A DNA stretch of 64,000 nucleotides. Origin: Candidatus Omnitrophota bacterium (lineage in GTDB: Bacteria > Omnitrophota > Gorgyraeia > Zapsychrales > Fredricksoniimonadaceae). Position numbers and translations under genes: made by a program. The DNA lies in assembly GCA_015233675.1 (NCBI GenBank), contig JADFXH010000001.1, forward strand, positions 12,563-76,562, written 5' to 3'. Below, in pieces: positions 2,002-63,531 of the stretch (position 1 is its first letter; each line of letters begins with the position of its first letter). Below the pieces are notes generated by a model. It saw only the letters and a list, made by a program, of their open reading frames with translations, made no database searches and had not been told where the DNA came from.

Positions 2002-2018
2002 ATTCTTATTCCTTTTTT

Positions 2019-5578: not shown

Positions 5579-5595
5579 GGCTATATCTCCTCATA

Positions 5596-6888: not shown

Positions 6889-8210
6889 TAATCGTCCCCT
6901 TCTCCGTCTAAATGGGCCTGCACGTGGCGTAAGCCGATCGTTGTCTTCACAGGCTTGATAATTGAAGTCACAAAATCTTTAGTGTCATTCACATTAAGCT
7001 GTTTAAAAAGAAACTCAAAGTTCTTTTCAATTTCCGCAGAGATGCCTTGTTTAACACTTTCAGGCATACCATAAATTTCTTTTTTAAATTGCCCTAGCGC
7101 GCGTTTACGGGCTTTGTAAATAAACTGCTCGTCGCTGTCTTTGGGCTTACGTTCGCTGGCACAATTTACTTTACTCCACGCCACCATTCGCGCATACAGG
7201 TCTTTTGGAAACAACTGGCTGTCTAATATCTTGTTTTGAAAATTAGTCGCCAAATGAATCTCAATGGTATTAATTTCCGGGAACTTATTGAACGCTTCAT
7301 CCGGCAAGGTGGAAGCGCCATGCTGCACCGCGCCGCCTAAACCGTATTTTTGCTGACCAGCAGCGGAAAGAGCTTTTAAAGTATCGAAATCCACTTTCAC
7401 GCTGGCAATCGTACCATCGGGCAATACCACCCCGCCGTGAGAGGTCCCCGTCTGGACCGAAAGTTTACTCAAGCCCGTCAAACCTTTGGGCAAGCTCTTG
7501 TTATAACCGTCCATAAAAGCCGTCAATTCCTCTACTGTGCTGTTTTTATGGCCGACTTCGCCAATTTCACCGCCAACTGAAATTTGAATACCCGTGGGCT
7601 GAATGGAACGGATGAGCTTAGTCATTTCAGCACAAACTTCAAAATTATCCCTCTGCTGCTCGGTCAAGGTCGGACGTTCCAAAACTACGGTTGTGGAAGA
7701 ATCCACATCAATATTATAAAATCCGGCGGCAATGCAATCCGCTACCAAGTCTTTGAGCCCGGCAACTTCCTTGGCCTTATTTTCAAAATAAGCTGTTGCT
7801 TTGATTTGACAATGGTCAGCCTGAACAAACACAGGCCCGCTATAGCCTTCTTTGATAGCCGCCGCTAAAATAACAGCGGAATATTCAACCGGAGGCTGAT
7901 TAGTGTAACCCATTTCAGATTTGGCAATTTCAAAAATAAAAGCACCCGCGTTGAGACGTTTAGCTGTGCGGAATATGGCACGGGCCAAATAATAAGTTAA
8001 AGAACGTAAATTCATGGCCGGTACGGTAAAATTCTTACCCTTCCCCTTACCGCGGGCCATATAAACATCCTGGATAGAAGCTAAAAATATACCTTTTGAC
8101 TGGGCTTCAGACTGAATTTTCTGGGCCAAAGCCTCTTTTTCCTTGATATTATCAGTCATTACCAATTTTTGCACTACTGCATCAACATCAAAAGCTGAAT
8201 TGTCTGCCAT
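6888..8210 (-). CDS. Class II (metal-dependent) fructose/ketose-bisphosphate aldolase family protein, long form
   Basis: ORF 6888..8258. The likely start is MADNSAF at 8210, with AAGGAG 8 nt upstream. Motifs PVFVQADHC and TSHGG. Confidence 0.75.
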
Positions 8211-8235
8211 AATATTACTCCTTATCGTACATGGG

Positions 8236-8436
8236 GTTCTGTCAAAATCCGCTTCCAAATGACGCGGGGCCTGTCCTTAGCCTCAACATTAAGGAGCTCC
8301 TCAGGCGGGAGCAACCTTAACAGCAGTTCCGACGGTGATTTTTCCTAAACCGCCCACTTGAGCAGGTGCCGTGCGCTCCTTAACATTGAGGCTAAAGACA
8401 CCCGCTAATCCATGTTTTCATATAACTTTTGACACT
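8236..8436. repeat. Palindromic intergenic element, copy C (same scaffold termini, different hairpin cargo)
   Basis: Begins gttctgtcaaaat and ends cttttgacact. Internal arms ccttagcctcaacattaaggagc (8275-8297) and gctccttaacattgaggctaaag (8375-8397). Confidence 0.8.
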
Positions 8437-8472
8437 AAACACATGAATTCATATTCAAAAGAATATTTGGTT

Positions 8473-8543: not shown

Positions 8544-11540
8544 TTAGCCGGCAGGAACCCCCAACAGCTCAGGCAAATTATTCAAGGGTTTTATCTCGAT
8601 ATCCTTAATATAAAGCCCATGGATTTCAAGGTTCTCCAGCGCCTTCATGTCCATTGGCGCGGCAACAGCGGACTTATCAGAATCCATATCTAAATTCATA
8701 CGATTAGCAGTTAAGTCTATACCACCATTAATCATTGCAGTGCCTTTCACAACTTTCGCTTTTGACTCAGGATGCCCAATTTTAGCTGTGCCTTGAGAAG
8801 TGTCGGCCTCTGCGGTTAATTGCCCCAGATAGCCGGCAACTTTCTTCATAGATGGGCGTCCTTTAGCTTTATGCATTGTCATCTCTTCTCGCAATTTACT
8901 CAAAGATGCTACTACGTCTATGTTCTTAGAGACTTGTGTATCAGAAAGTTCCAGCAAAATGCTGGAATAAATGGTGCGTCCAAGGCTATAAACATCTGAC
9001 TCGTCTATCTTAAAATCCTCTGGCGCTTTAAAATCGCCTGTTCCGGCTATCTGTCTATTCCCTAATATCGAAGCAATTCCCCAGTCAATCAACATCACTT
9101 CCCCTTTAGCATTAACAATAATATTCGAAGGTTTCACATCGTTATGGCTGATCCCCAAATCATGGATATCCCTTAATATCTCAGCTACTCTGGTCAAGAT
9201 TTCAAGACGTTTTAAAAGAGAAATACTGTTCCAAACTTTCGAGAGTGGCACAGCGTTCAAACGCCTGACCCTGATGCTTGAAGCATTTTCAATTCCTTCC
9301 AAATGTAACCAAATCTGATCGTTAGGCATTTTACCCCAAGCAAGAACCCTAGGGACCCCTGAAATATTTTTAAGTTCCAAATATTTTAAATAAGTCAGTT
9401 CATTGATTCCCTCTTCTTTTTTATGAAATATTTTATAGAATTTTGCGGGATCTCCCTGGTCAACATAAACCGCACCCTCCGACTCTTCCCCCAGTATATC
9501 ACCAAGACGCATATCAAAAAGCTGTATGGGACGCTTTGAGTCAAGTTCAATAATAAAATTTCTTTCAAGCTGATCTATCTGCCGGGTGACATTGCCGGCA
9601 GAAGTCATAGCATTATCTTCACGCTCGAGCTTTCCGTTTTTCCCTTCGGTGTATTTTATAGTTTCTCCAAAACCATCAGTAGCTTCTACATTCCATGGCG
9701 CGTTTCCATGTTTTTCAATATAAATAAAAGCGCTTTGCTGACCCGCTAAGGGCATATTATGTTTATAAGTTTTAATTTTCTCGTTATGGAATATTGCGTT
9801 AACTTCATCAAGCGGTTTCCCCGATCCGACATAATAAAGGTTAACAATCTCATTTTCTTTTAAGCCTGAAATTTTTATAAATTTATAAGTTTCCCTGTCA
9901 AGATCAGCAAGATTCTTTCTGGAATCCTTATAAAGATGGCCGACGGTCATTTTGCCTTTTTTATCGATTCTCACCACCGCCACGCATTGTCCGGCCTGAA
10001 TAGTAGATGTAACAAATTCCCCATTTGCAACCGGAGATCTTACTTTACCTTCATAAATTTCTTGGGCTTGACTCTTTTCGCCGGTTAACAAATCAGTTAA
10101 CGTCGTAGGTGTACTATGATGGTTAGGATGTTTTTCATGCACATATTGAACGCCTAACCACAACATTGTTGCCAGCGTAGTTAACAGCAAAACAGTTTTA
10201 GTTACCCTATCAGGATGTCCGTTATTAGCCCCACGAGCAGTCATAGCGACATCTGCTAATTCAACTTTAACCATGGACACTTGAGCTGAGTCAGGAATTT
10301 GGTTTTCCTCCTCAGGAGTCAAAATATTTCCTATTTCTGTCGTATTCATAGCAGCGCTCATCTCGGCCCCACCCGAAAAATATTTTCTTGGGATCATTTT
10401 CTGCGTCACAGGATCGGATTCTTCTTTAATATAGTTGTAAACGCCTTTTTTGAAGGCTTTTAGGTAGCGTTGGTAAATGAACTCAATATCATTTGGCGTT
10501 AGGTTTTTCCCCTGGGGTGCTTTCACATTCAAAGCTATCTCGCTTGGCAACCTGCTTGGCATTAGGCCTTGGATTGAATGGTCGTAATGAATACCCTCTA
10601 CTTTATTTTGATCAATATATTTACGCCCGATAATACTATCCTTCATGCGTTTTTTAAACCATACGGCCAGTATGAGCGAATAATAAACTTGACGCAGGGT
10701 GGCGAAGTTCTTGCCTTCGTTGACTTCCTTTTCTAATTCTGGAATGACAACTTCGCGGATGATTTGGGAAGCGAGGGTATGCATACCGTTATTCCCCTGA
10801 GGAGCTTTCACATTCAACCCTGGGTCACTTGGCAACGTGCTTGGGGACACGTCCCCTTCGGGGACATGTCCCCAGGTTGGCCTTTGGTTTTTTGACAATG
10901 CTAAATAATCCTGCTCAAGCATGACCTTCAATCTTGCCTTAACCACCAACGCCGTGTTGCCGTGTTCATAAACTTTGGCATGTTCCGGCACTATCCACAC
11001 TTTATTAAACGTATTTACCGGGATATCGGTTGTACCGAACTTCTTTTGCGCTTGCTCATATATTCGTTTCCAGAATTGCCTGCCAATTTCCCCTTCCGGA
11101 TAGATCAAACTGGCCGTAATTTGCTTAAGCATATAGTCTTCCGCTAACAAGTCACGGCCCATATCAGTCTGGCCGAAACTTTGCGGAATAATGCGGCTTT
11201 TCTCATAGGGCGATAAATTGACCCATAAATCTTGTTCAGGGGTTGTTAAAGAGGCAAGGAAATATTTGATTAGACGGGTTGCTTTCACATTCAACGGTTC
11301 ATTGGTTGGCAACCGGCTTGGCGTATCCCCTCTGTCTAAAATAAAATCAAATTTGAAAGGATTATCAGGGTGGATTTTTATTCCTTTTAGTATCGGAGGG
11401 TTAAATTCAGGGCTTACATGGACCATCACTCCGGATGAGGGCAAATGAAATTCATCTGCTTGAGCCAATGGAATTGTCCCAAAGGTGTTGACTAAAAATG
11501 CTATAAGAATAAATATATGGACTAATGGGGCTCGCTTCAT
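8544..11540 (-). CDS. Large membrane protein: signal peptide + ~390-aa uncharacterised N-module + TM helix + unknown domain + Hanks-type Ser/Thr kinase domain + GGIDL C-terminal module
   Basis: 998 aa. Kinase catalytic loop HNDVKPSNIIV (DNA about 9125-9160), DWG and APE-like motifs. TM helix VLLLTTLATMLWLGVQYV. The N-module is paralogous to that of 27124..31044. Confidence 0.8.
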   Translation of the reverse strand: MKRAPLVHIFILIAFLVNTFGTIPLAQADEFHLPSSGVMVHVSPEFNPPILKGIKIHPDNPFKFDFILDRGDTPSRLPTNEPLNVKATRLIKYFLASLTTPEQDLWVNLSPYEKSRIIPQSFGQTDMGRDLLAEDYMLKQITASLIYPEGEIGRQFWKRIYEQAQKKFGTTDIPVNTFNKVWIVPEHAKVYEHGNTALVVKARLKVMLEQDYLALSKNQRPTWGHVPEGDVSPSTLPSDPGLNVKAPQGNNGMHTLASQIIREVVIPELEKEVNEGKNFATLRQVYYSLILAVWFKKRMKDSIIGRKYIDQNKVEGIHYDHSIQGLMPSRLPSEIALNVKAPQGKNLTPNDIEFIYQRYLKAFKKGVYNYIKEESDPVTQKMIPRKYFSGGAEMSAAMNTTEIGNILTPEEENQIPDSAQVSMVKVELADVAMTARGANNGHPDRVTKTVLLLTTLATMLWLGVQYVHEKHPNHHSTPTTLTDLLTGEKSQAQEIYEGKVRSPVANGEFVTSTIQAGQCVAVVRIDKKGKMTVGHLYKDSRKNLADLDRETYKFIKISGLKENEIVNLYYVGSGKPLDEVNAIFHNEKIKTYKHNMPLAGQQSAFIYIEKHGNAPWNVEATDGFGETIKYTEGKNGKLEREDNAMTSAGNVTRQIDQLERNFIIELDSKRPIQLFDMRLGDILGEESEGAVYVDQGDPAKFYKIFHKKEEGINELTYLKYLELKNISGVPRVLAWGKMPNDQIWLHLEGIENASSIRVRRLNAVPLSKVWNSISLLKRLEILTRVAEILRDIHDLGISHNDVKPSNIIVNAKGEVMLIDWGIASILGNRQIAGTGDFKAPEDFKIDESDVYSLGRTIYSSILLELSDTQVSKNIDVVASLSKLREEMTMHKAKGRPSMKKVAGYLGQLTAEADTSQGTAKIGHPESKAKVVKGTAMINGGIDLTANRMNLDMDSDKSAVAAPMDMKALENLEIHGLYIKDIEIKPLNNLPELLGVPAG

Positions 11541-14283: not shown

Positions 14284-14306
14284 CTTTCTTTGATTAATCT
14301 AAAGCT

Positions 14307-14350
14307 AAAACTCCCCTAACCCCTCTTTACAAAAGAAGGGGGGAATAAAA
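14307..14350 (-). repeat. Intercistronic CCCCTC stem-loop, copy 1
   Basis: aaaactcccctaacccctctttacaaaagaaggggggaataaaa; one of five alignable copies. Confidence 0.7.
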
Positions 14351-14358
14351 TTTCAATG

Positions 14359-15093
14359 TCATTTATTAAAATGAGCTCTAGCTTCCTCGAGGGATTCAAT
14401 ACTTCCGATATCATACCATTTTCCGGAAAATTGAAAACCATAAACAGTTTTCTTATTCGAAAGCCATTGGATATAACTGCCCGCCGCATCTACCGCTTTA
14501 GATTGGCTTAAATATTCTTCCAAGAAACCAATCGTCTGTTTTGGAAAATAATACACACACATGGCGATTATGCTAGACACAGGATTCTTCGGTTTTTCCT
14601 CAAAGCTTGTAACTTTTTGAGCATTGTCCAATCCTAACACTCCAAATTTAGTCGCAGCACTTATATCCTTAATGTCAAAAACACCAATGGTCACAGCAGG
14701 CGTTTTACTTATCGCAAAATCCATATAAACAGACATATTTTGATCAAAAAGATTGTCCCCTCCAATGACAAGCCAATCCTGAGCAGAGGCTTCCTTTTTC
14801 CAAACAAAACGGATATCCCCGACGGAACCTAAACGTTCTTCCGGCGTATTAGTGCCGTCATTAACAACGCGGACTGGCAAGCCGTGACGGCTCGCCGCCC
14901 ATTGCTGAAATTGAGGTGTGAACTTATTATTACTGACCACAACGATCTCGCTTAAAGGTTTAATATCCTGAAGCTTATCAACCACATAATCGATCAAAGG
15001 CCTTTCACCCACCGGAATTAAAGGCTTAGGGGTATCTTTGATGACAGAGGCTAAACGTGTCCCATAACCTGCCGCTAAAATTAAAGCTTTCAT
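14359..15093 (-). CDS. Sugar-phosphate nucleotidyltransferase (NTP_transferase family)
   Basis: 244 aa. N-terminal MKALILAAGYGTRL signature of glucose-1-P thymidylyl/uridylyltransferase-like enzymes. Confidence 0.75.
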   Translation of the reverse strand: MKALILAAGYGTRLASVIKDTPKPLIPVGERPLIDYVVDKLQDIKPLSEIVVVSNNKFTPQFQQWAASRHGLPVRVVNDGTNTPEERLGSVGDIRFVWKKEASAQDWLVIGGDNLFDQNMSVYMDFAISKTPAVTIGVFDIKDISAATKFGVLGLDNAQKVTSFEEKPKNPVSSIIAMCVYYFPKQTIGFLEEYLSQSKAVDAAGSYIQWLSNKKTVYGFQFSGKWYDIGSIESLEEARAHFNK

Positions 15094-15140
15094 AAACTCC
15101 CCCTTACCCCTCCTTATAAAAAAGAGGGGGAATAAAAAAT
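15094..15140 (-). repeat. Intercistronic CCCCTC stem-loop + SD, copy 2
   Basis: Minus strand reads ccccctcttttttataaggaggggtaaGGGGGAGtttATG. Confidence 0.7.
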
Positions 15141-19940: not shown

Positions 19941-19982
19941 TAACTCCCCCTGCCCCTCTTTTTAAAAAAGAAGGAAGTTTTT
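19941..19982 (-). repeat. Intercistronic CCCCTC stem-loop + SD, copy 3
   Basis: Minus strand reads uccuucuuuuuuaaaaagaggggcaGGGGGAGuuaagauAUG (frr). Confidence 0.7.
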
Positions 19983-20725
19983 TAACGGACAATAGTACCT
20001 ATTTCTTCGCCGTATATAGCCCTTTTGATGTTCCCTTTTTGCAAAAGATCAAACACAATGATAGGCAGGCTATTGTCCATGCACATGCTGATGGCGGTTG
20101 CATCCATCACTTTCAGATTTTTCTTTAAAACGTCTATAAATTTTAAGCTCTTGAATTTCTTAGCATCTTTATTCTTAAGAGGATCTGCCGAATAAACACC
20201 ATCGACTTTGGTTGCTTTCATGATCACGTCACATCCGATCTCAGTCGCACGTAAAGTCGCGGCTGTGTCGGTCGTAAAATAAGGATTGCCTGTCCCCGCC
20301 ACAAAAATAACCACGCGGCGTTTCTCAAGATGACGTATGGCACGACGCAAAATATACGGTTCAGCAACAGCATGCATTTGAATGGCCGTCATGACCCTTG
20401 TCTGCACACCAACCTGCTCCAGCGCGTTTTGTAAAGCCAAACCGTTCATGACAGTGGCAAGCATGCCCATATAATCAGCTACTGAACGGTCCAAACCAAA
20501 GCGTTTAGATTCGATCAAGCCGCGAAAAATATTGCCGCCACCGACAACGATCGCCATTTCAACGCCAGCCTCATGAACTTCTTTAACTTGGCCGGCTAAC
20601 GAGGCGCACATTTCCACATCAATGCCATGCTGCAGGCGACCCAACAAAGCTTCCCCGCTTAATTTCAGCAATACTCTTTTGTATACAGGAGCTTTATTCA
20701 AAAAAATCCCCTCTTCCTTACTCAC
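19982..20725 (-). CDS. pyrH: UMP kinase
   Basis: 247 aa with [12 protein letters not shown] and [10 protein letters not shown]. Confidence 0.92.
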
Positions 20726-21245: not shown

Positions 21246-21272
21246 GTTAAAATCTCCTTAATAATTTAGTTT

Positions 21273-21312
21273 CAACTCCCCCTGCCCCTCTTTATAAAAA
21301 AGAGGGGAGAAC
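21273..21312 (-). repeat. Intercistronic CCCCTC stem-loop, copy 4
   Basis: Perfect 9-bp stem cccctcttt/aaagagggg. A second small hairpin atccct...agggat lies at 21315-21345. Confidence 0.7.
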
Positions 21313-21353
21313 ATATCCCTATCTTTAACATAAAGAGGGATTCGTGGAGTTTA

Positions 21354-25172: not shown

Positions 25173-26323
25173 TCGTCGCGGGTGAGGCTTCAGGCGATAT
25201 GCGTGCCGCGGGCCTCGCCCGTGCTTTAAAAAATCTTGACCCCGCCCTGCGCCTGAGCGGTATCGGCGGCGAGCATATGCGTCAAGCAGGAGTTGAATGC
25301 TTTACAGACATCACTGAGCTTGCGGTGATCGGCATCACCGAGGTTATTAAAAATTTTAGCCGCATCAAAAAAGTATTTGATCAAACTTTAAAACAAATCG
25401 ATTCCAGTCATCCTGATTGTGTCATCCTGGTTGATTATCCCGGATTTAATCTGCGCCTGGCCCGGGAAATAAAAAAACGCGGGCTAAAGATCATTTACTA
25501 TATCTCGCCCCAAGTCTGGGCATGGAGGGAAAAAAGAATATTGAAGATCAAGAAATTAGTTGACCGCATGATCGTTTTATTCCCTTTCGAAAAAGACATT
25601 TATAGCAAATACGGGATGAAGGTTGATTACGTCGGACATCCTTTAGTGGATGAGATCATCGTGGGTTGCAGCCGCGCAGATGTATTAAAAACAATCGGGC
25701 TTCTTTCAAACAAAACCACCATCGGCATTATGCCCGGCTCACGCGCTAAAGAAGTTGAACGCCACCTGCCCTGCATGCTGGAGGCGGCCCAAAAACTCTT
25801 TAAACAAAACCACGAGCGCCAGTTCATATTGCTCAGGGCCCCCACCATCCCTATGAAAATTATTGAACCAATTTTAAACGAGAACCTATATCCCAAATGT
25901 CATTCCCGCGAATGCGGGAACCTTAAACACATCCCAATTAAAATTTACGATGGACCTGCCTATGATGGGATTAATGCGATGGATGCTGTCATCGTAGCAT
26001 CCGGTACCGCTACCTTAGAAACCGCCCTGCTGGAAAAACCCATGGTCATCATCTATAAAACTTCATGGCTTACCTACGCAATAGCAAAGGCTGTCATCAA
26101 AATCCCTTATATCGGTTTAGTCAATATCGTAGCCGGGAAGAAAATAGCAGAAGAATTAATCCAAAATGAAGCCACCGCTGCCAACATTGCCAATGCCGTT
26201 GAAAGAGCACTCAAGAGGCCTCAAATCGTCGATGAGCTTTCCGCAGTTAAAACATCTTTAGGCAAACCCGGTGCCAGTCTTCGCGCGGCGCGGGTTGTTT
26301 TAGAAGAAATTTCTATCTCATGA
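25145..26323 (+). CDS. lpxB: Lipid-A-disaccharide synthase
   Basis: IVAGEASGD, YISPQVWAWR and ASGTATLE motifs. The more likely start is ATG at 25169, forming an ATGA overlap with the upstream stop. Confidence 0.9.
   Translation: MGTPTKLIMIVAGEASGDMRAAGLARALKNLDPALRLSGIGGEHMRQAGVECFTDITELAVIGITEVIKNFSRIKKVFDQTLKQIDSSHPDCVILVDYPGFNLRLAREIKKRGLKIIYYISPQVWAWREKRILKIKKLVDRMIVLFPFEKDIYSKYGMKVDYVGHPLVDEIIVGCSRADVLKTIGLLSNKTTIGIMPGSRAKEVERHLPCMLEAAQKLFKQNHERQFILLRAPTIPMKIIEPILNENLYPKCHSRECGNLKHIPIKIYDGPAYDGINAMDAVIVASGTATLETALLEKPMVIIYKTSWLTYAIAKAVIKIPYIGLVNIVAGKKIAEELIQNEATAANIANAVERALKRPQIVDELSAVKTSLGKPGASLRAARVVLEEISIS
25899..25921. repeat. REP-like hairpin gtcattcccgc-gaat-gcgggaac inside the lpxB reading frame
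   Basis: Same family as 31260-31284, 53218-53242 and 61447-61470. Translated in frame as CHSRECGN. Confidence 0.7.
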
Positions 26324-27123: not shown

Positions 27124-30100
27124 TTAAACTCCGGCCAAAGTCCCGCCCTTCACAGGCGTCTGGAGCCCCATTAAAGGCCAAACGCTCGTTATAGGTGTTA
27201 TTCTAAAAATCACCGGCGAAAGGCTTTCAATGCCTTCACGCCTAATTCGCGCAACCATGACAGGATCGATATCCATTTCAACACCCTTGCCATCTTTACT
27301 GACCTTCCATTGCATGCCGCCGGAAGTATTTAAATCAATACCTCCTCTAAGATCAGGATTAACAACACGGCCCCTCGAAGCCCTATCAACAGCCATCGCA
27401 GCGTCATTTTTGATTGCACTCTTTGAAAAAAGAGCAAGCAACGCATTCGCCGACCTCTGACAGGGCGATGGGAAAGGAGCCTCAATGCTGGTTTCTTCAA
27501 TATAGCCCCATGCTTGAAGATAATCTGCCCAAGTCTCTATCTTGCTTATTGTCTCCTTATTATCTCTCTTAACCTCGCGTAATATTTCTGGATCGGCTCC
27601 TTTAAGTTTTTTGAGTAATGCAACAAAAGAATCATCAGCTTTCCTTGCCGTGCCTATATCAGGTATTGTGCCCACTGAGAAGTCCCGCATCTGCGCTGTA
27701 TTCGGAATTCCCTTCATTAACTTATTAACCTCTTGAACAATAAGCCCCGTCATGGCAGCGTCAGAAAAAGTAAAATGGAGCGTTTCACCCTCAATGAAGA
27801 CTTTGACTTTTCCGGTCTGCAAGGCTGCAACCTTTTGATGATATCCCTTTTGCAGTTCACTTACATAAACTTCAGGATTCCTAAGAAAAGGATCTATCAC
27901 AAGGCCGAAATTCCCTTCAGACTCAAAAGGAGTTGCGGCATCTTCACGGAAAGCGCTTAATTCATTATCGGGATTGACCCAAAACAAAATGCGTTTGGCG
28001 AGGCTGATTTGATCAATGTTATGCATATCCTCTCTATCAGGCAACTTCACCCATTGCGCTAATCTTTGCAACAATTTCATTTGTTGAACTACAACGGTGG
28101 TATTCAACCCTTCTTTGCCCTTTGCCTCAAGCAAGAATACCCGGTATCCGCGATGAGTATACGTTGCTCCATTTGTATTTATTTTTTTTTGATACTCCGG
28201 GTCATTCGTTACTTCGCGAACGTTTTGGTCATCTATTTCAAAAGAAAAATCCTTCGCCGTCATCGCCGGATTGGGTTTCGCATATGCAGGGATCATTCTT
28301 TCAAATTCCGCAAGGTCCAGCCTGACCACCTTAGTACTTTGGTCGAAGCCTACCCCTAAGACACTCCCATTGAGAGATACAGAATTAACACCTACCAGTC
28401 TGCCAGAGTTATAAATATTTGGACCAGGAACACCTTCCGTAATCAGCCTTGTATGGTCCTCATTGCGATCAAGCATAACATTCCATAAACGACTCCACCT
28501 GTGCAGGGGGTTCTTTGGATAAGCGAAAAAGAACTCGAGCTGGCGCAGCCCTCCTTCCCCTATATCATCGGCAACAAACAACTGTCCCTTAACATAGACC
28601 CTCGCATTGCCTCCCATAACCGGAAGAGAAACGCCAACATTTCTGCCTTTTGCGTTAAATAGTTGAAAATAATTTATACCATTTTTCACTCTAATACCTA
28701 TCTTCATGTTGGGGGCAATAGGGACATCCGGGTCGCCAGGTTTAACCGTAAGCGTAGCCGCGTCTGTCATATTTGACCGATCATCTCCTAAAGCAGCATC
28801 TGATTGACTATATTCTAAAAGCTTTAAAGCGATTTCCTGTGGGGGCAAATCCTGATTTTTATTCACTAGTTCAAGAAGATCATAATAGGAAGCTCCTATA
28901 TTAATCCCTGCGGCCTGTAAATTTTCAATAAAAGCCTGATACACTTTCTGGTAACCGTCTTCAAACTGATCAAAAATATTATGCCCATTACTTTTGAGTT
29001 TATTAATCTCAACCCCCCGTTGCTCCGCCAAGGCCACCATGTCCCAAAATTCAGAATACCATGCAGACGGGCCTTTAAGTAGCGTATTGAACACCCTATC
29101 AAAATCAAATTTATCATCCGGCAGCTTTCTTTTTCCTTTGATCTCTGGAGTCATTTCATTGTGAAGTTTTTGTTTTAACTCTTGCATACCATCAAGATAG
29201 CGGTTTATAATTTTCTTCAACCCCTCTGCCGTCATTGCCGCATTGCCGATGGCTCGACCGAGAGCCGTACCCGGCAAAAGCTTGGCCCGCGCAAAAGTTG
29301 CTTGTATTTTTTGCTCATCAGTGGCGTTTGAATCACGGGCACTGACCTTTAATGTGATCTCCATTAACGGATCTATGGCAGAACCCCTCGGTCTCCATCC
29401 AGAATCTATAAATCTGAAGATCTCATCCAGGCGTGGTTGAAAAATAAACCAGCAGTGGTCTACAACAAGACGCGTAAAATTCTTTTCATGGATTTTGTTC
29501 AAACTCTCTTCTGTCTCCGCCATCTTGATCATTAAATAATTTAAAATTGTCAAATGCACAAATTGCCTCGCGGCAGTTTCTGTCCGATGAAATTGTTTGG
29601 CAATCGCGGGGCTGACATTTATAATGACCTCCCGGATATTCTGCTCAATAACGCTTTGTTCTTGGCCTGTCAATTGACGATTATTCTCAATATCCGTCAT
29701 CCTGAATAAAACACCCATTGACTCCTCAAGAGGCTTAAATATTCTCGGAAACGCCGTCTCAAAATCTACGGAAGATGCCATCGCCTCATCAAAACCAGCA
29801 GCCGGTGAAGGCATTGCCGCGTTAGCGTTATTTGTAACTACACCTGCATTAATGATCACCATGGCCCTATTGGGCAAAGAATCGGACAATGCGGCTACAT
29901 CCGTTGTCATCGCAGGATTAGCCGCAGGAGTGCCTTCGATTAATAACCCGCCAGAGAAATATTTGTGAGGAATCGTTGCGCCCGCCGCGTCCACGTCTTC
30001 CTTAATATAGTTGAACACGCCCTTTTTATAGGCTTTCAGGTATTGTTCATAAATTTGCCGTTTTACTGTCGGATCATTTAAATCAATACCTTTGACCTTG

Positions 30101-31044
30101 GCTTTATTGGCATACACTTGATTGAGCAAGGCTTCTTTAAGGTTTTTCTTGTACCAGCTGGAAAGTATAATTGAGTTGAAAATCTGGCGCAGATTGGCGA
30201 AGTTTTTGCCGGTATTGACTTCTTTTTCGAGTTCGGGAAGGATGATTTCTTTGACGATTTGACTGGCTAAGGAGTTGCTTGGCAAGCGGCTTGTTCCCTG
30301 GGGTGCTTTCAGTTCCAGAGCTTCATTGGTTGGCAGCCTGCTTGGGGACACGGCCCCTTCGGGGACATGTCCCCTGGTTGGCGTCCCTATTTGGCTTTGG
30401 TGCTTTTGCAAGGCCAGATAATCTTCTTCCAGCATTACCTTTAAATGTTGGTCTACCACAAAGGCGGTTTGGTTGTGTTCAAAGACTTCTGCCCTGTCGG
30501 CCATGATCCATACCTTATTAAAGGTGTTGACCGGGACTTGGGTTGTTCCATATGTCTGCCGGGCCTTGGCATAGACTTTATCCCAGAAGGTCTTGCCTAA
30601 CTGTTTCTCCGGATAAATAAGAGAAGCTGTGATTTGTTTTAAAATATAGTCCTGTTCCAAAAGGTCACGCCCCATGTCGGTCTGACCCAATGCTTCAGGG
30701 ATAATTTTGTTATTTTCATAAGGAGATAGGTTGACCCAAACATCTTTGTCAGGGATAGCTAAACTGGCTAAAAAATACTTGATAAGCTTTTCGCCTTCTT
30801 TTTTCAGAGGCTCACCGGACATCTTGTCTTGGCCCACATCCACTATAAAATCAAACAAGAAAGGATTATCTTTGTGAACAGTCAGGCCTTTTATGATCAC
30901 AGGCTCATAGGCAGGACTTAAATTGACCATGGTTCCGGGGGCAGGCAGGCCTAAAACAGAATCGGCATGGGCTTTGGGCAGAGGGCCTAAGGCGGTCAAA
31001 AGAAAACAAAAAATAATTATCAAGTTCAAAATTCTTTTGAACAT
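27124..31044 (-). CDS. Large secreted protein: signal peptide + ~390-aa N-module (paralog of 8544..11540) + ~850 aa of unknown modules + GGIDL C-terminal module
   Basis: 1306 aa. Long identical runs shared with 8544..11540 (LIKYFLASL, GQTDMGRDLL, LKQITASLIYPE, PVNTFNKVWI, PELEKEVN.GKNFA.LRQ, KYFSGG). No TM helix after the signal peptide. Confidence 0.8.
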   Translation of the reverse strand: MFKRILNLIIIFCFLLTALGPLPKAHADSVLGLPAPGTMVNLSPAYEPVIIKGLTVHKDNPFLFDFIVDVGQDKMSGEPLKKEGEKLIKYFLASLAIPDKDVWVNLSPYENNKIIPEALGQTDMGRDLLEQDYILKQITASLIYPEKQLGKTFWDKVYAKARQTYGTTQVPVNTFNKVWIMADRAEVFEHNQTAFVVDQHLKVMLEEDYLALQKHQSQIGTPTRGHVPEGAVSPSRLPTNEALELKAPQGTSRLPSNSLASQIVKEIILPELEKEVNTGKNFANLRQIFNSIILSSWYKKNLKEALLNQVYANKAKVKGIDLNDPTVKRQIYEQYLKAYKKGVFNYIKEDVDAAGATIPHKYFSGGLLIEGTPAANPAMTTDVAALSDSLPNRAMVIINAGVVTNNANAAMPSPAAGFDEAMASSVDFETAFPRIFKPLEESMGVLFRMTDIENNRQLTGQEQSVIEQNIREVIINVSPAIAKQFHRTETAARQFVHLTILNYLMIKMAETEESLNKIHEKNFTRLVVDHCWFIFQPRLDEIFRFIDSGWRPRGSAIDPLMEITLKVSARDSNATDEQKIQATFARAKLLPGTALGRAIGNAAMTAEGLKKIINRYLDGMQELKQKLHNEMTPEIKGKRKLPDDKFDFDRVFNTLLKGPSAWYSEFWDMVALAEQRGVEINKLKSNGHNIFDQFEDGYQKVYQAFIENLQAAGINIGASYYDLLELVNKNQDLPPQEIALKLLEYSQSDAALGDDRSNMTDAATLTVKPGDPDVPIAPNMKIGIRVKNGINYFQLFNAKGRNVGVSLPVMGGNARVYVKGQLFVADDIGEGGLRQLEFFFAYPKNPLHRWSRLWNVMLDRNEDHTRLITEGVPGPNIYNSGRLVGVNSVSLNGSVLGVGFDQSTKVVRLDLAEFERMIPAYAKPNPAMTAKDFSFEIDDQNVREVTNDPEYQKKINTNGATYTHRGYRVFLLEAKGKEGLNTTVVVQQMKLLQRLAQWVKLPDREDMHNIDQISLAKRILFWVNPDNELSAFREDAATPFESEGNFGLVIDPFLRNPEVYVSELQKGYHQKVAALQTGKVKVFIEGETLHFTFSDAAMTGLIVQEVNKLMKGIPNTAQMRDFSVGTIPDIGTARKADDSFVALLKKLKGADPEILREVKRDNKETISKIETWADYLQAWGYIEETSIEAPFPSPCQRSANALLALFSKSAIKNDAAMAVDRASRGRVVNPDLRGGIDLNTSGGMQWKVSKDGKGVEMDIDPVMVARIRREGIESLSPVIFRITPITSVWPLMGLQTPVKGGTLAGV

Positions 31045-31243: not shown

Positions 31244-31284
31244 GTCATTTTGTAAAAGCGGATTCCCGCTTGCGCGGGAATGAC
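31244..31284. repeat. REP-like hairpin (ggattcccgc-ttgc-gcgggaatgac)
   Basis: 8-bp GC stem; fits the pattern ATTCCC-N8-GGGAAT. Confidence 0.7.
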
Positions 31285-31299
31285 AAAATCTATTATGCC

Positions 31300-31319
31300 A
31301 TCCCCGCGAAAGCGGGGAT
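31300..31319. repeat. REP-like hairpin (atccccgc-gaaa-gcggggat)
   Basis: Perfect 8-bp stem with a GAAA loop. Confidence 0.7.
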
Positions 31320-31347
31320 CCAACCTGTTAGCGCGTAGAAAAAAGGT

Positions 31348-45471: not shown

Positions 45472-45646
45472 GAAGGATGGAGAGCTATTATGTATTCGGC
45501 ACATTCAGGAATTTTTTGCCAAAAGTCTGCAAGGTTTTACGACAATTTTGTTCCAAATGAAGAGAATCTTTAGAACAAAATTGTCGTAAACCGTAGCAGA
45601 CGGCAAAAATATTCCGTGCCGAATACATAATAGCTCTCCATCCTTC
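45472..45646. repeat. Family-1 long hairpin, copy D (inverted relative to copies A/B)
   Basis: Outer arms gaaggatggagagctattatgtattcggcac / gtgccgaatacataatagctctccatccttc pair 31/31. Lies between moxR and the DUF58 gene. Confidence 0.9.
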
Positions 45647-45687
45647 ATGCATGCCAGTGATCACAAAGACTAATTTTATCCATGGCT

Positions 45688-46738: not shown

Positions 46739-47272
46739 TTATAAACCGAGCAAAGAACGATGGCCGTCACGGGCTATCTTCCGTGCCAAAGTTTGCACTT
46801 TGTTCTTTAAACGGTCTTTATGGAGCTTCATTTTAGCCGACACTTTTTTATCAAAAGTCGCAATGATCTGGGCCGCTAAAATACCTGCATTCTTGGCACC
46901 ATTAACCGCAACGGTCGCTACCGGAACACCCTCAGGCATCTGTACAATGGATAACAATGAATCCAGACCTCCTATGGAATTGGATGATTTGACCGGCACA
47001 CCAATGACAGGAAGTGTCGTAACAGCGGCTATAACGCCCGGCAAATGAGCTGCCCCGCCGGCACCGGCTATAATGACTTTTAAACCGCGCGAAGCGGCCC
47101 TTGATGCGTAATCAAAGGTCATTTTGGGTGCCCGGTGCGCTGAAATCACCGTGACCTCATAAGGAATACCGAATTCATCCAATATATCCGCAGCAGCATT
47201 CATAAGGTTTAAGTCAGACTGGCTGCCCATGATAATACCGACTAATGGATTCTTCATTTTAAGGCTCTCCAT
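46739..47272 (-). CDS. purE: N5-carboxyaminoimidazole ribonucleotide mutase
   Basis: 177 aa with GSQSDL, SAHRAP and AGGAAHLPG. Confidence 0.9.
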
Positions 47273-47315
47273 AAACTCACCCTTCCCCCTCTTTATAATA
47301 AAGAGGAAGTATAAC
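47273..47315 (-). repeat. Intercistronic CCCCTC stem-loop + SD, copy 5
   Basis: Minus strand reads cuuccucuuuauuauaaagagggggaaGGGUGAGuuuAUG (purE). Confidence 0.7.
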
Positions 47316-47318
47316 TTT

Positions 47319-51805: not shown

Positions 51806-51879
51806 ACTTGTCTCCTTCCTTAAAATTCCACAAGCATTTCCATTGATTAGGTCGGGCCAACGCCCTTAAAAATTAAATA

Positions 51880-51979
51880 GTTCTGTCAAAATTCTTACAG
51901 GCTAATACTGATATAAAGATTTTAGCCAAAACAAAATATCGATATCAGCCGTCCACGCATTTCATAAAACTTTTGACCC
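51880..51979. repeat. Palindromic intergenic element, copy E (scaffold with a short hairpin cargo)
   Basis: gttctgtcaaaattcttacaggc[taatactgatat...atatcgatatcag]ccgtccacgcatttcataaaacttttgaccc. Confidence 0.8.
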
Positions 51980-51985
51980 AACCAA

Positions 51986-52210
51986 TTAAATTCTCAATAT
52001 ATTAACGACTTTATGTCGGGATTTCAACCCTTTTACGATTTCAATTTCCGACCTTCTAACTTTATAATGATCTGCTAAAAAATCAATCAATGCCTCATTA
52101 GCCCTGCCTTCAACAGGCGGCGCTGTCAAATAGATCTTAATGATATCCCCATCCTCTTTCCACAAATTCTTTTTAGCGCCAGGGATGACTTTGACTTGAA
52201 GCTTCATCAA
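51986..52210 (-). CDS. DUF167 (YggU-like) protein
   Basis: 74 aa with VKVIPGAKKN...GRANEALIDFLA. Confidence 0.8.
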   Translation of the reverse strand: MMKLQVKVIPGAKKNLWKEDGDIIKIYLTAPPVEGRANEALIDFLADHYKVRRSEIEIVKGLKSRHKVVNILRI

Positions 52211-52281
52211 CTATTACCCAATAAAAAAAGGACGTATGATGCTCCAAACGCCCCTTAAACCTTACTTGACAAGATCCACAA

Positions 52282-53206: not shown

Positions 53207-53217
53207 GAAAAATTCCT

Positions 53218-53242
53218 GGATCCCCGCTTTCGCGGGAATGAC
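53218..53242. repeat. REP-like hairpin (ggatccccgc-tttc-gcgggaatgac)
   Basis: GC stem. Located between the Smr gene stop and the next candidate promoter. Confidence 0.7.
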
Positions 53243-53270
53243 AATTTGAATTTACACACAATATGGTATA

Positions 53271-54978: not shown

Positions 54979-55686
54979 TTAACCTCCGATCTTTTTACCG
55001 TCTTTTAAATAAATAGCCTTATCGTAACGGGACTCTTCCTGGTCATAATAATGGGTCGCTACAATCACCGTTTTCCCTTGAGCTTTAATTTTATGTAAAA
55101 CCTCACTGACCGTCTGGCGGGTACTCTCATCTACCGCGTTAAGCGGTTCATCCAGCAAAAGCAAATCCGCGTTTTGAGCCAAGGCTCGGGCGATCAACAC
55201 CCTCTGCTGCTGACCGCCGGAAAGTTTACTAATCTGACGATCAGCCAAATCCAAGACGTTCATTTCTTTAAGAGAATGACTGGCAATTTCAATATCTTTC
55301 TTCTGAGGCCGATTAAACCAGCCTAAATAAACATACCGCCCCATAACAACCAAATCCAGAACACTGATTGGAAAATGCCAGTCGATCTCGCTACGCTGGG
55401 GCAAATAAACTACCCTGTGATGACAAGCTCCTAAAGGATGCCCAAAAACACGAATATTACCTGTACGGACAGGTAAAAGGCCGCAAATGGCTTTAAACAA
55501 AGTTGACTTACCCGCACCATTGGGGCCAACCAAGGCCATGGCTGAACCAGCCGAAACGCTAATATCAATATCCCTGAGAACAAATTTTTCTTCTGAAGGA
55601 TAGGAAACCCCCAGCCCTTGAATTTCCAAAGCAGGCGCTTTAGGGTCAGGAGAACTATGCCTGTGTTGACAATAAGGGAATCTCAT
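54979..55686 (-). CDS. Metal ABC transporter ATP-binding protein
   Basis: Walker A GPNGAGKST, signature LSGGQQQR, Walker B LLLLDEP. Confidence 0.88.
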   Translation of the reverse strand: MRFPYCQHRHSSPDPKAPALEIQGLGVSYPSEEKFVLRDIDISVSAGSAMALVGPNGAGKSTLFKAICGLLPVRTGNIRVFGHPLGACHHRVVYLPQRSEIDWHFPISVLDLVVMGRYVYLGWFNRPQKKDIEIASHSLKEMNVLDLADRQISKLSGGQQQRVLIARALAQNADLLLLDEPLNAVDESTRQTVSEVLHKIKAQGKTVIVATHYYDQEESRYDKAIYLKDGKKIGG

Positions 55687-56594
55687 TTTAAATATTTCCG
55701 AAAAATTTCCACATTGTATTTTATCATACTTAAATAGGTCCCGCCTTCACTGCCGGATGGCCCCAAAGCGTCGGTGTATAACAACGGCCCTATTTCAATA
55801 CCTGCTTCATGGGAAAGCGACCGGGCTAATTTAGGGTTGGCCATGTTTTCTGAAAAGATGACGCAAACACCATTGGCTCTAATAATATTTAACAAATCCG
55901 CTGTTTGCTTTGCGGATGGGTCAGCGGCTTCTGTTGTGGCAGATGGAATTACAGCGCCGATGATTTTAAAGCCATAACGTCCGGCAAAATACCCTAAATC
56001 GTCATGGTTGGTAACTAATTTACGTTTACCTACAGGAATTGAGGCAACTTGGGCCTTGACCCAAGCATCCAGCACTTGGAGTTGTTGGATGTAATTACGG
56101 ACGTTAGAATCATATATGTCCTTATTAAGAGGATCAATGCTCACCAGCGCATCACGAATATTTTTAGTATAAAGGACAACATTGGAAACGTCTTGCCATG
56201 CATGCGGATCAGTTTCATTAGGATTGTCTTCAAAAATTCTTGGGGCAACGCCCTGAGAAACAACGATGCGTTTAGCTTTTGAGCCGCTGGCCATATACAA
56301 TTTATCCAACCAATGTTCCAGGTGTAAGCCGTTTTCAAAAATAATGTCTGCTTTAGCTATACTTACGGAATCTGCCGGGATTGGTTCATATTCGTGAGCA
56401 TCCCCATTGGGGCCAACCAAAACAACTAAATCAACCTTGTCCCCTGCCACATTTTTAAGGACATCACCGATAATACTAATGGTCGCTATCGCTTTAATCT
56501 TTTCGGCGCGGGCAGTGCTTAGCCCAAGTCCAATAATTAAAAAAGCTAATAACATCACCTTCCCGATATTTAAAAACTTTGTCACGTAACTCAT
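55683..56594 (-). CDS. Metal ABC transporter substrate-binding protein (ZnuA/TroA family)
   Basis: ORF 55683..56663. The likely start is MSYVTKFL at 56594. Signal peptide and DPHAW motif. Confidence 0.85.
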   Translation of the reverse strand: MSYVTKFLNIGKVMLLAFLIIGLGLSTARAEKIKAIATISIIGDVLKNVAGDKVDLVVLVGPNGDAHEYEPIPADSVSIAKADIIFENGLHLEHWLDKLYMASGSKAKRIVVSQGVAPRIFEDNPNETDPHAWQDVSNVVLYTKNIRDALVSIDPLNKDIYDSNVRNYIQQLQVLDAWVKAQVASIPVGKRKLVTNHDDLGYFAGRYGFKIIGAVIPSATTEAADPSAKQTADLLNIIRANGVCVIFSENMANPKLARSLSHEAGIEIGPLLYTDALGPSGSEGGTYLSMIKYNVEIFRKYLK

Positions 56595-56618
56595 AAACTT
56601 CTTCCTTCTGCAAAAAAC

Positions 56619-57014
56619 GGTTATGTCAAAAGTTATATGAAAAATGCAATGGACGGCTGACACCGATATGTTCCTCCTGCTAAAATTTGACGTTCACGCT
56701 GGTACCGTTGTTGCCCAAAAAATTGGTCACGCGAAAGCTCCTGCCGAATGCAATGTTGTCAAATTTCTATACGCAGGAGAAACATATCGGTATCAGCCTG
56801 CGCAAAATTTACGTGTTATGCATGAGAAGAGATATTGTTTGCGAAACATTCAGGGATTTTTCGCCAAAAGTTGGCTAGGATTTACAACGAAAATGTTCCA
56901 AATGAAGAGAAACTTTAGAACATTTTTGCTGTAAACCGACGCCAACGGCGAAAATATCCCGTTGAGCAAATAATATCTCTTCTCATGCATAACCTGCAAG
57001 AATTTTGACAGAAC
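56619..57014. repeat. Compound palindromic element, copy F (inverted scaffold carrying two hairpins: 56657-56796 and the family-1 copy at 56815-56993)
   Basis: Left end ggttatgtcaaaagttatatgaaaaatgcaatggacgg; right end cctgcaagaattttgacagaac. Fills the whole spacer between the TPR gene and the substrate-binding-protein gene. Confidence 0.85.
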
Positions 57015-57036
57015 CCAAAAAGCCTCATGGATCAAT

Positions 57037-57720
57037 TTAAAACAATACTCTGCTATGTTTATTCTTGTAAAAATCGTATTGCTTTTGGATCTCTTTGGCT
57101 TGAGCGCTGTTCCCTGTTTTTTTGTAGCACTCAAGTAACATGCCCAGTAAAGTTTGCATACTATTTAAACTTCGGAATCCCAGAGTGCCATGACGGTATT
57201 TCAGAATATCAGCTTCCAATAAAGCTGACGCACGGCTCCCGGCACTTCTGACACGTTCAAAATACCCAATGGCCCTGACAAAATCACCCTTCGAATAATA
57301 GGCTTGGCCTAATTCAAAAGAGGCCACCTGCTTATCATCGGGATCTAGTAAAAGGACTTTCTTAAATACCGGGATTGCCATATCTTCCCGGGACAAATCC
57401 ATGTAGGCATACCCTAAAGATGCCCATGCCTGCTTGTTGTCCTTATCAATGACAATTATTTTTTTACATAAACGGATCACATCGCTGTAAGAAGAGTTTG
57501 CGGAATAGGCAACAACACGAACAAACATCTGCTGAACAACAAATGGCCGTAAAAGAATTAACATCGCCCCCACGATCAACACCGTCAAAAGCCATCGACC
57601 CAAAAATCTTAACGGATGATAGCCATAACTATGCCCGCCGCCATGATCATGACCATGATCGCAGGTACATTCTTTGGAATTTGCCTGAGCATATGCGTGT
57701 GTATGTTCTGAGTGGCTCAT
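57037..57720 (-). CDS. Membrane-anchored TPR protein with a His/Cys-rich N-terminus
   Basis: 227 aa: MSHSEHTHAYAQANSKECTCDHGHDHGGGHSYGYH, then a TM helix and TPR repeats. Confidence 0.65.
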   Translation of the reverse strand: MSHSEHTHAYAQANSKECTCDHGHDHGGGHSYGYHPLRFLGRWLLTVLIVGAMLILLRPFVVQQMFVRVVAYSANSSYSDVIRLCKKIIVIDKDNKQAWASLGYAYMDLSREDMAIPVFKKVLLLDPDDKQVASFELGQAYYSKGDFVRAIGYFERVRSAGSRASALLEADILKYRHGTLGFRSLNSMQTLLGMLLECYKKTGNSAQAKEIQKQYDFYKNKHSRVLF

Positions 57721-61446: not shown

Positions 61447-61470
61447 GGATTCCCGCTTGCGCGGGAATCC
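61447..61470. repeat. REP-like hairpin (ggattcccgc-ttgc-gcgggaatcc)
   Basis: Perfect 10-bp stem. Located between the lipoprotein gene stop and the next promoter. Confidence 0.75.
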
Positions 61471-61493
61471 ACATTTACAAAAAACTAAGACTA

Positions 61494-62439: not shown

Positions 62440-62459
62440 AGCCGCCTCCTTGAAACTAA

Positions 62460-62516
62460 GTTCTGTCAAAATTCTTGCAGGCCGTCCATTGCATTTTTTA
62501 GATAATTTTTGACACT
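62460..62516. repeat. Palindromic scaffold without hairpin cargo (copy G, apparently unoccupied form)
   Basis: gttctgtcaaaattcttgcaggccgtccattgcattttttagataatttttgacact. Confidence 0.75.
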
Positions 62517-62540
62517 ATCATAGACTAAAATATCATATTA

Positions 62541-63214: not shown

Positions 63215-63298
63215 GCTTTTATTCTACCAAAATATTAAGAATATTGCGGTTTAAATGGTTCTTTCGTATTTACTGGACTACTTTAATTTATGCAACTT

Positions 63299-63467
63299 CA
63301 ATGGACAGCAATTGTATATTCGGAACGGGATATTTTCGCCGTCTGCTTCGGTTTACAACAAAAATGTTCTAAAGATTCCCTTCATTTGGAACATTTTTGT
63401 CGTAAAACCTCGCAGACATTTGGCGAAAAATCCCTGAATGTTCCGAATATACAATTGCTGTCCATCG
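63299..63467. repeat. Family-1 long hairpin, copy H (with degenerate scaffold flanks, about 63263-63475)
   Basis: Outer arms caatggacagcaattgtatattcggaac / gttccgaatatacaattgctgtccatcg pair 27/28. The core aligns with the other copies. Confidence 0.9.
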
Positions 63468-63531
63468 TTGACGCAAATATATATAATTTTTATTATCAAT
63501 TTTATTTATGTGTCCAATGAATAAGAAAGGT

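Follow-up and report, generated by a model that had tools for sequence, protein, structure and literature searches.

The BOX elements of Streptococcus pneumoniae are modular repeats of the form boxA-boxB(n)-boxC, and the BIME/REP and REPIN sequences of gamma-proteobacteria, together with ERIC, Correia and RPE, are palindromic repeats. Arrays of IS26 translocatable units are reportedly explained by Harmer and Hall through targeted insertion next to an existing IS26. Miniature inverted-repeat transposable elements (MITEs) of the IS6/IS26 family of insertion sequences (IS), such as those of IS26, IS257/IS431 and IS1216, are short, non-coding, multi-copy and intergenic with an 8-bp target duplication, and the element considered here shares these traits. 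It is a 397-nt sequence on the minus strand at positions 56619-57015 of a 64-kb stretch of contig JADFXH010000001.1 (hereafter the window), and it lies between a TPR protein gene and the zinc-uptake gene znuA in the dsbD-TPR-znuABC operon of a Candidatus Omnitrophica metagenome-assembled genome (MAG). The evidence makes it likely that the element is one non-autonomous transposable element, a MITE, inserted in a TPR-znuA spacer of ~37 nt. It is a familiar kind of selfish DNA and not a new mechanism, built from repeat families for which no earlier description was found, Rfam giving no match and the literature searched no paper on MITEs in Omnitrophota. These families show that uncultured Omnitrophota with small genomes harbour an active and layered mobilome, made of non-coding palindromes, by which operon spacers are remodelled. 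Loci from related MAGs, numbered with the prefix L, were used for comparison.

Ends, target duplication and copies of the scaffold

Read on the minus strand, the element is composed of scaffold-left, a 179-nt family-1 hairpin, an 18-nt linker, a 144-nt family-2 hairpin and scaffold-right, corresponding to the sequence pieces GTTCTGTCAAAATTCTTGCAGG, family-1, ACGTAAATTTTGCGCAGG, family-2 and CCGTCCATTGCATTTTTCATATAACTTTTGACATAACC. The scaffold ends are 13-nt terminal inverted repeats (TIRs; GGTTMTGTCAAAA), located at 57003-57015 for scaffold-left (GGTTCTGTCAAAA, minus strand) and at 56619-56631 for scaffold-right (TTTTGACATAACC on the minus strand, GGTTATGTCAAAA on the plus strand). GGTTATGTCAAAA agrees with GGTTCTGTCAAAA at 12 of 13 positions, the two ends pair mutually over 13 nt at 92%, and the same ends are present on five further copies in the window and in L026. 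Inside the TIRs lie the scaffold-left inner half TTCTTGCAGG (56993-57002, minus) and the scaffold-right inner part CCGTCCATTGCATTTTTCATATAAC (56632-56656, minus; 3 mismatches to 62482-62514), the whole of scaffold-right reading CCGTCC...TTTTGACATAACC from 56656 to 56619. All five segments of the layout proposed in a preliminary description of the locus were recovered, as was its view that the spacer holds a single element; its boundaries needed correction, since scaffold-left, first described as GTTCTGTCAAAATTCTTGCAGG at 57014-56993, ends one base further at 57015 and 8-bp direct repeats lie outside the element.

These direct repeats were evaluated with the boundaries fixed by the TIRs and without sliding, by comparing the adjacent 8-mers against a null of random 8-mer pairs in the window. 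At the element, the znuA-side flank (56611-56618, plus strand CAAAAAAC) and the TPR-side flank (57016-57023, plus strand CAAAAAGC) agree at 7/8 positions, for which the null for at least 7/8 is 6e-4. The flanks of the copy at 51879-51983 are identical (AATTAAAT and AATTAAAT, 8/8; null 2e-5), and those of the copy at 62459-62519 agree at 5/8 (TGAAACTA and ATAGACTA; null 0.03). Without the element and one of the duplicates, the spacer is reduced to 37 nt, ATTGATCCATGAG + GYTTTTTG + CAGAAGGAAGAAGTTT. As with IS6/IS26-family MITEs, the insertion is absent at the orthologous sites of relatives: the TPR-znuA spacers of L034, L035, L036 and L037 measure 80, 83, 10 and 119 nt, none with the element, and L034 is syntenic with the window over ~7 kb without any of the window's repeats in that stretch. 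Size and coding content are likewise those of a MITE (397 nt, under ~600 bp; non-coding, with only frame-inconsistent open reading frame (ORF) artefacts). Small protein genes within the element were considered and rejected, the ORFs through family-1 lying in different frames between copies.

Six scaffold copies occur in the 64 kb, all intergenic, and five of them (936, 5596, 8236, 51880 and 62460) are on the plus strand, opposite to the element, in agreement with the inverted orientation already reported for it. The copy at 62459-62519 is an empty scaffold of 61 nt with the junction GCAGG|CCGTCC; its 105-nt sister at 51879-51983, flanked by AATTAAAT|AATTAAAT, holds a shortened family-2 hairpin only; that at 8235-8440 is filled by a third hairpin family (family-3) with homologues in L026, L021 and L017. 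A scaffold variant with family-1 at 935-1159 and a second scaffold-plus-family-1 copy at 5595-5818 are 97% identical over 224 nt, the identity ending exactly at GTTCTGT... and ...TTGACA, and therefore scaffold and content can be duplicated as a unit. The left scaffold boundary is invariably GTTC. That a single type of scaffold is found empty or housing three different hairpin families bears out the earlier notion of a scaffold with interchangeable hairpin cargos. Two more family-1 copies lie in the window, at 45472-45653 (minus) with divergent scaffold-left-like flanks and at 63292-63472 (plus).

IS1216-type ends read GGTTCTGTTGCAAAGT (PMC2920175), and IS26 has ends GGCACTGTTGCAAA with an 8-bp target duplication (PMC8477213). 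The TIR GGTTCTGTCAAAA matches the IS1216-type sequence apart from one 2-nt gap; it begins GGTTCTGT..CAAA, so that, set against the IS6/IS26 type GG(C/T)(A/T)CTGTTGCAAA, its first 8 nt are those of the IS1216 type and CAAA follows after the 2-nt gap, which is a resemblance only. ISCth4-type ends (GGCAGTGTAAATA) are similar to the TIR as well. The scaffold ends thus resemble those of the IS6/IS26 family, a resemblance and not a proof, and because of it the probable agent of mobilisation is a DDE transposase acting in trans from a gene elsewhere. Differences from IS6/IS26-family MITEs are also apparent, as the TIR is without the TG of TTGCAAA, some copies are without a clean duplication, no cognate transposase was found in the window ORFs or in 343 kb of loci, and the interior consists of independent palindromic modules instead of a deleted transposase gene.

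Several observations weigh against the interpretation as an IS6-like MITE. Elements of the IS256 and ISL3 families likewise produce 8-bp duplications, which leaves the likeness of the TIRs as the sole ground for the IS6 assignment. A Pfam scan of 40 window ORFs, which are housekeeping genes or have no assigned function, revealed no transposase with these ends, viral contigs yielded none either, and tblastn with a Tnp26 sequence gave no match over the 343 kb of related loci. At 935, 5595 and 8235, the right end of the copy is deviant and a clean 8-bp duplication is missing. Scaffold-left adjoins the start of the downstream gene in 10 of 11 copies, the exception being the present element, and this orientation bias counts against a DDE cut-and-paste or copy-in model because such a model does not predict it. 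Finally, species that share only 75-80% identity in ZnuA have hairpin cores with 85-95% identity, a conservation far above that expected of neutral spacer DNA, which could instead reflect selection for a host function.

Further searches for a partner were also negative: all-against-all clustering of the ORFs of the loci revealed no recurrent neighbour gene, a 22-mer of the scaffold had 0 matches in genome, metagenome and viral collections, and an rve-type IS beside the L017 copy was rejected as a partner, its ends being unrelated. The 13-nt ends and the 8-bp duplication offer a handle for finding the responsible transposase.

Two observations concern similar sequences. In L026, a 9-nt direct repeat TTTATTTAG (6827-6835 and 7020-7028) surrounds a scaffold-plus-family-3 copy, one repeat at the left flank and the other after a truncated right end without TIR; it may be a duplication or an AT-rich coincidence. 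Palindromes of ~27 nt (TGTCATTCCCGCGAAAGCGGGAATCC), with ends TGTCA...TGACA like the scaffold ends, occur in the window at 25898-25920, 31260-31322, 53217-53254 and 61447-61473 and in L025 at 917-945 and 1405-1435. They have the same form as the dRS3 repeats of Neisseria, ATTCCC-N8-GGGAAT.

Hairpin modules and the duplicated junction

The family-1 module of the element (56815-56993, minus) has 33-nt outer arms (56815-56847 and 56961-56993) that are 91% complementary and 113 nt apart, and 33-nt inner arms (56870-56902 and 56914-56946) closing an 11-nt loop. The family-2 module (56655-56798, minus) has arms at 56655-56680 and 56773-56798, 92% complementary, around a conserved interior of 92 nt; the second hairpin was correctly recognised in the preliminary description, in which its length of 144 nt and its 26-nt arms were understated as 140 and 24 nt. 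Both modules are at or near the scaffold's centre of symmetry.

Each of the two families occurs independently in several Omnitrophota species. A 23-nt core pattern of family-1 was found at 26 loci from ~10 Omnitrophota MAG species (some labelled Planctomycetales), and a profile search retrieved 34 copies in 300 kb, the element's copy scoring 160 bits with nhmmer. These copies are palindromes of 165-179 nt, all intergenic. Their outer arms look hypervariable within the window, yet they define subfamilies common to several species, the arms of the element's copy matching L027 and those of 936/5596 matching L022. Scaffold-left-like modules also flank family-1 in L010, L016, L019 and at window 45472. 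Homologues of family-2 are found in L017, L022, L028 and L029, and those of family-3 in the loci named above.

How the hairpins sit in the scaffold is apparent from the empty copy, which reads ...CTTGCAGG|CCGTCCATT.... At the element and at 51880, family-2 or a stub of its arms lies exactly between GCAGG and CCGTCC without duplication, and the CCGTCCAT junction comes after family-2 in L017 and L022 too. L022 has a family-1 copy that is enclosed by family-2-type arms (GGCTGACACCAATATG...CATCGGTATCAGCC). From the position of family-2 at GCAGG|CCGTCC and the nesting in L022 it follows that hairpins occupy the centres of symmetry of other palindromes. The modules would have entered scaffolds without target duplication, or scaffolds would have lost modules by precise palindrome deletion.

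The junction motif at 56993-57006 and its degenerate repeat at 56797-56810 are both present as earlier reported, the latter within the linker ACGTAAATTTTGCGCAGG (56797-56814, minus). Their edit distance is 3 of 13, for which the chance probability is ~0.002 if the position is tied to the hairpin boundary and ~0.008 if any position in the linker is allowed, so that the likeness alone is real but weak, only modestly beyond chance. The other copies are more informative, since ...AAAtTcTTgCAGG precedes family-2 in every copy examined, clearly at 51880, L017, L022 and L029 and weakly in L028. The sequences directly 5' of family-2 are AAATTTTGCGCAGG in the element, AAAATTCTTACAGG at 51880, AAATCTTTAGCAAG in L017, CTCTTGCGCAGG in L022, GCCATTGCAGG in L029 and CTATTAAAAGG in L028. 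Because of this constant position, the duplicated junction is a second, degenerate scaffold-left inner half without the TIR proper, that is, the normal left boundary of family-2. With a complete scaffold-left before family-1 and a degenerate copy of its inner half before family-2, the formula that describes the architecture best is (scaffold-left + hairpin) x 2 + scaffold-right, a tandem reuse and not a target-site duplication.

The target-site duplication favoured as one option in the preliminary description would mean that family-1 inserted, with a duplication of 13/14 nt, into the left arm of a scaffold already holding family-2. The repeat does flank family-1 directly on both sides, and its edit distance of 3 is of the modest significance given above. 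However, flanking direct repeats of only 0-1 nt were found across 29 family-1 copies, the three exceptions of 3-4 nt being artefacts of mis-set boundaries, and the one duplication of the element that is real measures 8 bp and lies outside the TIRs. Whether it lies in the window scaffold or within the family-2-type arms of L022, two contexts without relation, one and the same family-1 subfamily ends identically (ATGGCTAAGG...CCTTAGCCAT) and shows no duplication. The motif stands before family-2 even where family-1 is absent (51880, L017, L029), the scaffold-left-like copies of L022 are separated by more than family-1 alone, and a duplication diverged by 23% would stand beside hairpin arms diverged by only 9%. 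This origin of the repeat is thus regarded as highly improbable.

Tandem reuse, which had been offered as the alternative, fits better with L022, a different species in which the compound is found at a non-orthologous locus with unrelated flanking genes. There, a scaffold-left-like stretch is followed by family-1, a linker ending TCTTGCGCAGG, family-2 and then CCGTCCATGTATTTCATAAAGC, and with 79% identity the alignment to the element extends from family-1 across the linker and family-2 into scaffold-right. The same order at a non-orthologous locus makes the compound a recurrent architecture, and the junction duplication is found in this second compound copy as well. The TTGCGCAGG variant before family-2 is common to the element and L022; this GCGC variant is in both compound copies and in none of the solo family-2 copies. 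The shared order together with the shared variant suggests that the compound was formed one time only and spread afterwards as a unit. It may have originated when two adjacent elements fused and the small inner TIR palindrome was lost, or by an IS26-like, end-targeted insertion. In analogy only, the arrays of IS26 translocatable units share the head-to-tail reuse of one end, with (end + cargo) repeated and a single opposite end closing; here, in contrast, the repeated piece is only the inner half of scaffold-left without the TIR proper.

The same data can be read in the opposite direction, with the hairpins as the original interior of one long palindromic scaffold, the short and empty scaffolds as derivatives by central deletion, and the compound as a fusion of two elements that lost their inner ends. 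Long palindromes are prone to deletion, scaffold-left and the reverse complement of scaffold-right are imperfectly homologous arms, and the lengths form a series from 61 nt (empty) through 105 nt (with the family-2 arm stub) to the full family-2. The linker moreover resembles scaffold-left minus the outer GTTC(T) only, and that of L022 has a fuller scaffold-left-like stretch, CTTGTCATG...TCTTGCGCAGG. Yet one scaffold houses three unrelated cores, family-1, family-2 and family-3, and the same cores occur in other species without any scaffold. Family-1 inside the L022 family-2-type arms is easier explained by nesting, and the GCAGG|CCGTCC junction is without the short direct repeat that slippage deletions usually leave. 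An origin of the series by deletion is consequently judged possible but doubtful. Scaffolds that are empty, partly filled or doubly filled constitute a natural system for the building, tolerance and deletion of long palindromes in bacterial chromosomes.

The nature of the constraint on the hairpins was approached through an alignment of 28 family-1 copies, in which 50 base pairs are formed with 97.8% of cells paired. Both sides have changed in 208 cells, compared to 71 +/- 7 in shuffles, pairing falls to ~50% when the partner columns are slid, and only ~8 cells carry a one-sided (G-U type) change. Four copies of family-2 show 13/54 pairs to be compensatory. Where the flanking genes are co-directional, family-1 lies in sense orientation 14 times and in antisense orientation 8 times. 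Since wobble intermediates are almost absent and orientation is near-random, the family-1 pattern is that expected of a DNA palindrome and not of an evolving RNA helix, and the strict Watson-Crick covariation of the stems points to a constraint on the DNA.

Selection might retain the element or its modules as a structured RNA with a function in the operon transcript, such as stabilising the intercistronic segment, serving as a site of processing, acting as attenuator/terminator or regulating znuA in antisense, a reading that has to be weighed against this pattern. The fold is indeed very stable, at -181.1 kcal/mol on the gene strand versus -103.7 +/- 5.6 for shuffles (z -13.8) and -170.2 kcal/mol on the other strand, the z values for the two strands lying between -14 and -16; as DNA the element folds at -97.2 kcal/mol. 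Conservation across species, conserved loops and bulges, G-U pairs conserved on one strand, the 10:1 bias in scaffold orientation relative to genes and a closing stem on the mRNA strand followed by GUUUUUUG are also in agreement with an RNA. On the other hand, Rfam holds no family for the element at gathering or permissive thresholds (only three tRNAs elsewhere in the window at gathering, and only sub-threshold miRNA-like hairpin noise within 56400-57200). The 14:8 orientation of family-1 is close to random, G-U intermediates are almost never seen in covarying pairs, the flanking genes are unrelated housekeeping genes, and the orthologous spacers of four relatives are without the element. A scan for sigma-70 promoter-like sites on the gene strand inside the element gave none, and neither did a scan of 56300-57300 for intrinsic terminators (a short GC-rich stem-loop with a U-run); the T-run 3' of the closing stem belongs to the target duplication. 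A role as functional RNA is therefore considered very unlikely. Annotation of the ~400-nt spacer as a regulatory RNA, or as a Zur site that was displaced, is to be avoided.

A low probability is likewise given to the hairpins being recombination sites that move as folded single-stranded DNA (ssDNA) under a single-strand-specific enzyme, whether attC-like, REP/RAYT or IS200/IS605-type PATE. Consistent with such a process, neither family-1 nor family-2 is surrounded by a target duplication, conservation of asymmetric bulges and G-T pairs is seen on one strand, the left scaffold boundary is constant, and modules sit at the apex of other palindromes. Against it, the window ORFs scanned include no intI, Y1/HUH or RAYT gene, no cassette arrays are present, the scaffold ends GTTCTGT...ACATAAC are the reverse of the attC R''/R' arrangement, modules of ~175 nt are much larger than REPs, and the scaffold has a classical TIR plus an 8-bp duplication. 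An integron attC site proper (R''(RYYYAAC)...R'(GTTRRRY), 57-141 nt) was rejected for its reversed ends, lengths of 61-397 nt, housekeeping flanks and lack of an array.

Mosaics of palindromic units and linkers in operon spacers, strict complementarity of the arms, insertion inside other repeats and presence across related species are shared with BIME, REP, REPIN, ERIC, Correia and RPE. REP/REPIN-RAYT systems, however, consist of 20-40-nt palindromes that have a conserved 5' tetranucleotide, are paired as REPINs and flank a RAYT gene, whereas the modules here are 144-179 nt, 3-8 times longer than REPs, with no RAYT gene and no Y1 transposase among the window ORFs scanned, and the carrier has TIRs and an 8-bp duplication. 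With BOX elements the scaffold shares mutually pairing terminal modules around internal modules variable in number and type, as well as an intergenic, strongly folded character and a position near gene starts. It has no sequence relation to them, and its internal modules are long self-complementary hairpins of three unrelated families, which also exist alone outside the scaffold.

A further alternative, which appears unlikely, is that families 1, 2 and 3 are mobile palindromes of a separate class, restricted to Omnitrophota, that insert without target duplication at the symmetry centres of other palindromes. Insertion at GG|CC of an empty scaffold or at the apex of the L022 family-2-type arms would then produce multi-layer 'Russian-doll' hairpins, new outer arms would sometimes be gained by inverted copying of flanking DNA, as in L017, and the conserved bulges and loop together with the Watson-Crick arms would be recognition features for a putative hairpin- or ssDNA-specific enzyme, the IS6-like scaffold being only one landing pad and vehicle. 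This is kept in consideration because of the orientation bias, the high conservation of the cores and the extra arms of L017.

Three loci provide additional observations on family-1. The L017 hairpin has extra outer arms ATGTTCATAAAT/ATTTATGAACAT at 3914-3928 and 4117-4131, the right one being the last four codons (YVHK, then stop) of the gene at 4115-5038 and the left one an inverted copy of it, which hints that hairpin arms can be acquired from flanking DNA. In L025, two family-1 hairpins (947-1136, plus; 1204-1380, minus) share one spacer in opposite orientation, with a 67-nt linker containing the scaffold-left-like ACAAATTTGCCA, and are bracketed by small TGTCATTCCCGCG palindromes. L004 is syntenic with window 1-5590, and both have a family-1 hairpin in the same gene X-aroK spacer (L004 1313-1483; window 967-1146); these hairpins differ in subfamily, orientation and exact position, which suggests that insertion recurred or that turnover is rapid in that spacer. 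In L004, the element is missing from the leuA-ilvC spacer, which reads CTCTGTCAAC...TATCAAATA.

The TPR-znuA spacer and its putative regulation

The genes around the spacer are all on the minus strand, in the order glgP, a DsbD-like membrane protein gene, the TPR protein gene (57037-57720), the spacer (56595-57036), the ZnuA-like protein gene (55683-56594), an ABC ATPase gene, an ABC-3 permease gene and a DUF3299-like gene. The ZnuA-like product has a 100% identical counterpart at NCBI, encoded in a Candidatus Omnitrophica MAG. The znuA start codon is at 56594-56592, with a GGAAG Shine-Dalgarno sequence at 56605-56601.

The relatives L031, L034 and L037 share a conserved palindrome of 6-3-6 form, AAATAGAAAnnnTTTCTATTT, which is situated ~25-30 nt upstream of znuA and overlaps a TATAAAT-like, -10-like hexamer there; it is also found upstream of fur in L031 and L037 (sites at L031 5505-5530 and 5955-5980, L034 2800-2822, and L037 940-962 and 2955-2980). 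From its position and symmetry, this box is plausibly a Zur/Fur operator. It was not found near the window operon, which has no adjacent fur gene either, and the reconstructed 37-nt empty site is also without it. The idea that the element had destroyed a Zur box was accordingly withdrawn, and the check for a displaced metal-regulator site proposed in the preliminary description came out negative: the insertion displaced no operator because the 37-nt spacer already lacked the box, as in L035 and L036.

Since this pre-insertion spacer was only 37 nt long and already without the box, znuA is most likely transcribed by read-through from dsbD-TPR, and its expression would then proceed across a very stable structured intercistronic segment. 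Two other sources of transcription were rejected. A hybrid outward promoter from the TTGACA of the TIR, which lies 20-35 nt from the start codon in 5/6 copies checked and ~95 nt from it at 51880, has on inspection no -10 hexamer at the correct spacing, and a sigma-54 reading of TGGAC..TGCA has the wrong spacing.

Minor features of the window

A small DUF167/YggU-like ORF (MKLQVKVIPGAKKNL...; family assigned by eye) is located at 51991-52215 on the minus strand, between a gene for a 266-aa protein and yqeY, and is not present in the syntenic L034 spacer. A 49-nt inverted repeat (41851-41899/41991-42039), 78% complementary with 91 nt between its arms, is found where TPR and VWA genes overlap. 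Repeated coding segments of 67-87 nt, 75-81% identical, at 10420-10900 and 29996-30382 lie in the genes 8544-11540 (kinase domain) and 27124-31044, both of them very large, and resemble related repeat domains. Lastly, a terminator-like repeat, CCCCTAACCCCTCTTTATAAAAAAGAGGGG, is present 3' of genes at 14306-14350, 15093-15137, 19941-19985, 21271-21315 and 47272-47316, and it also occurs in relatives, at 3885-3912 in L017 and at 878-915 in L035.

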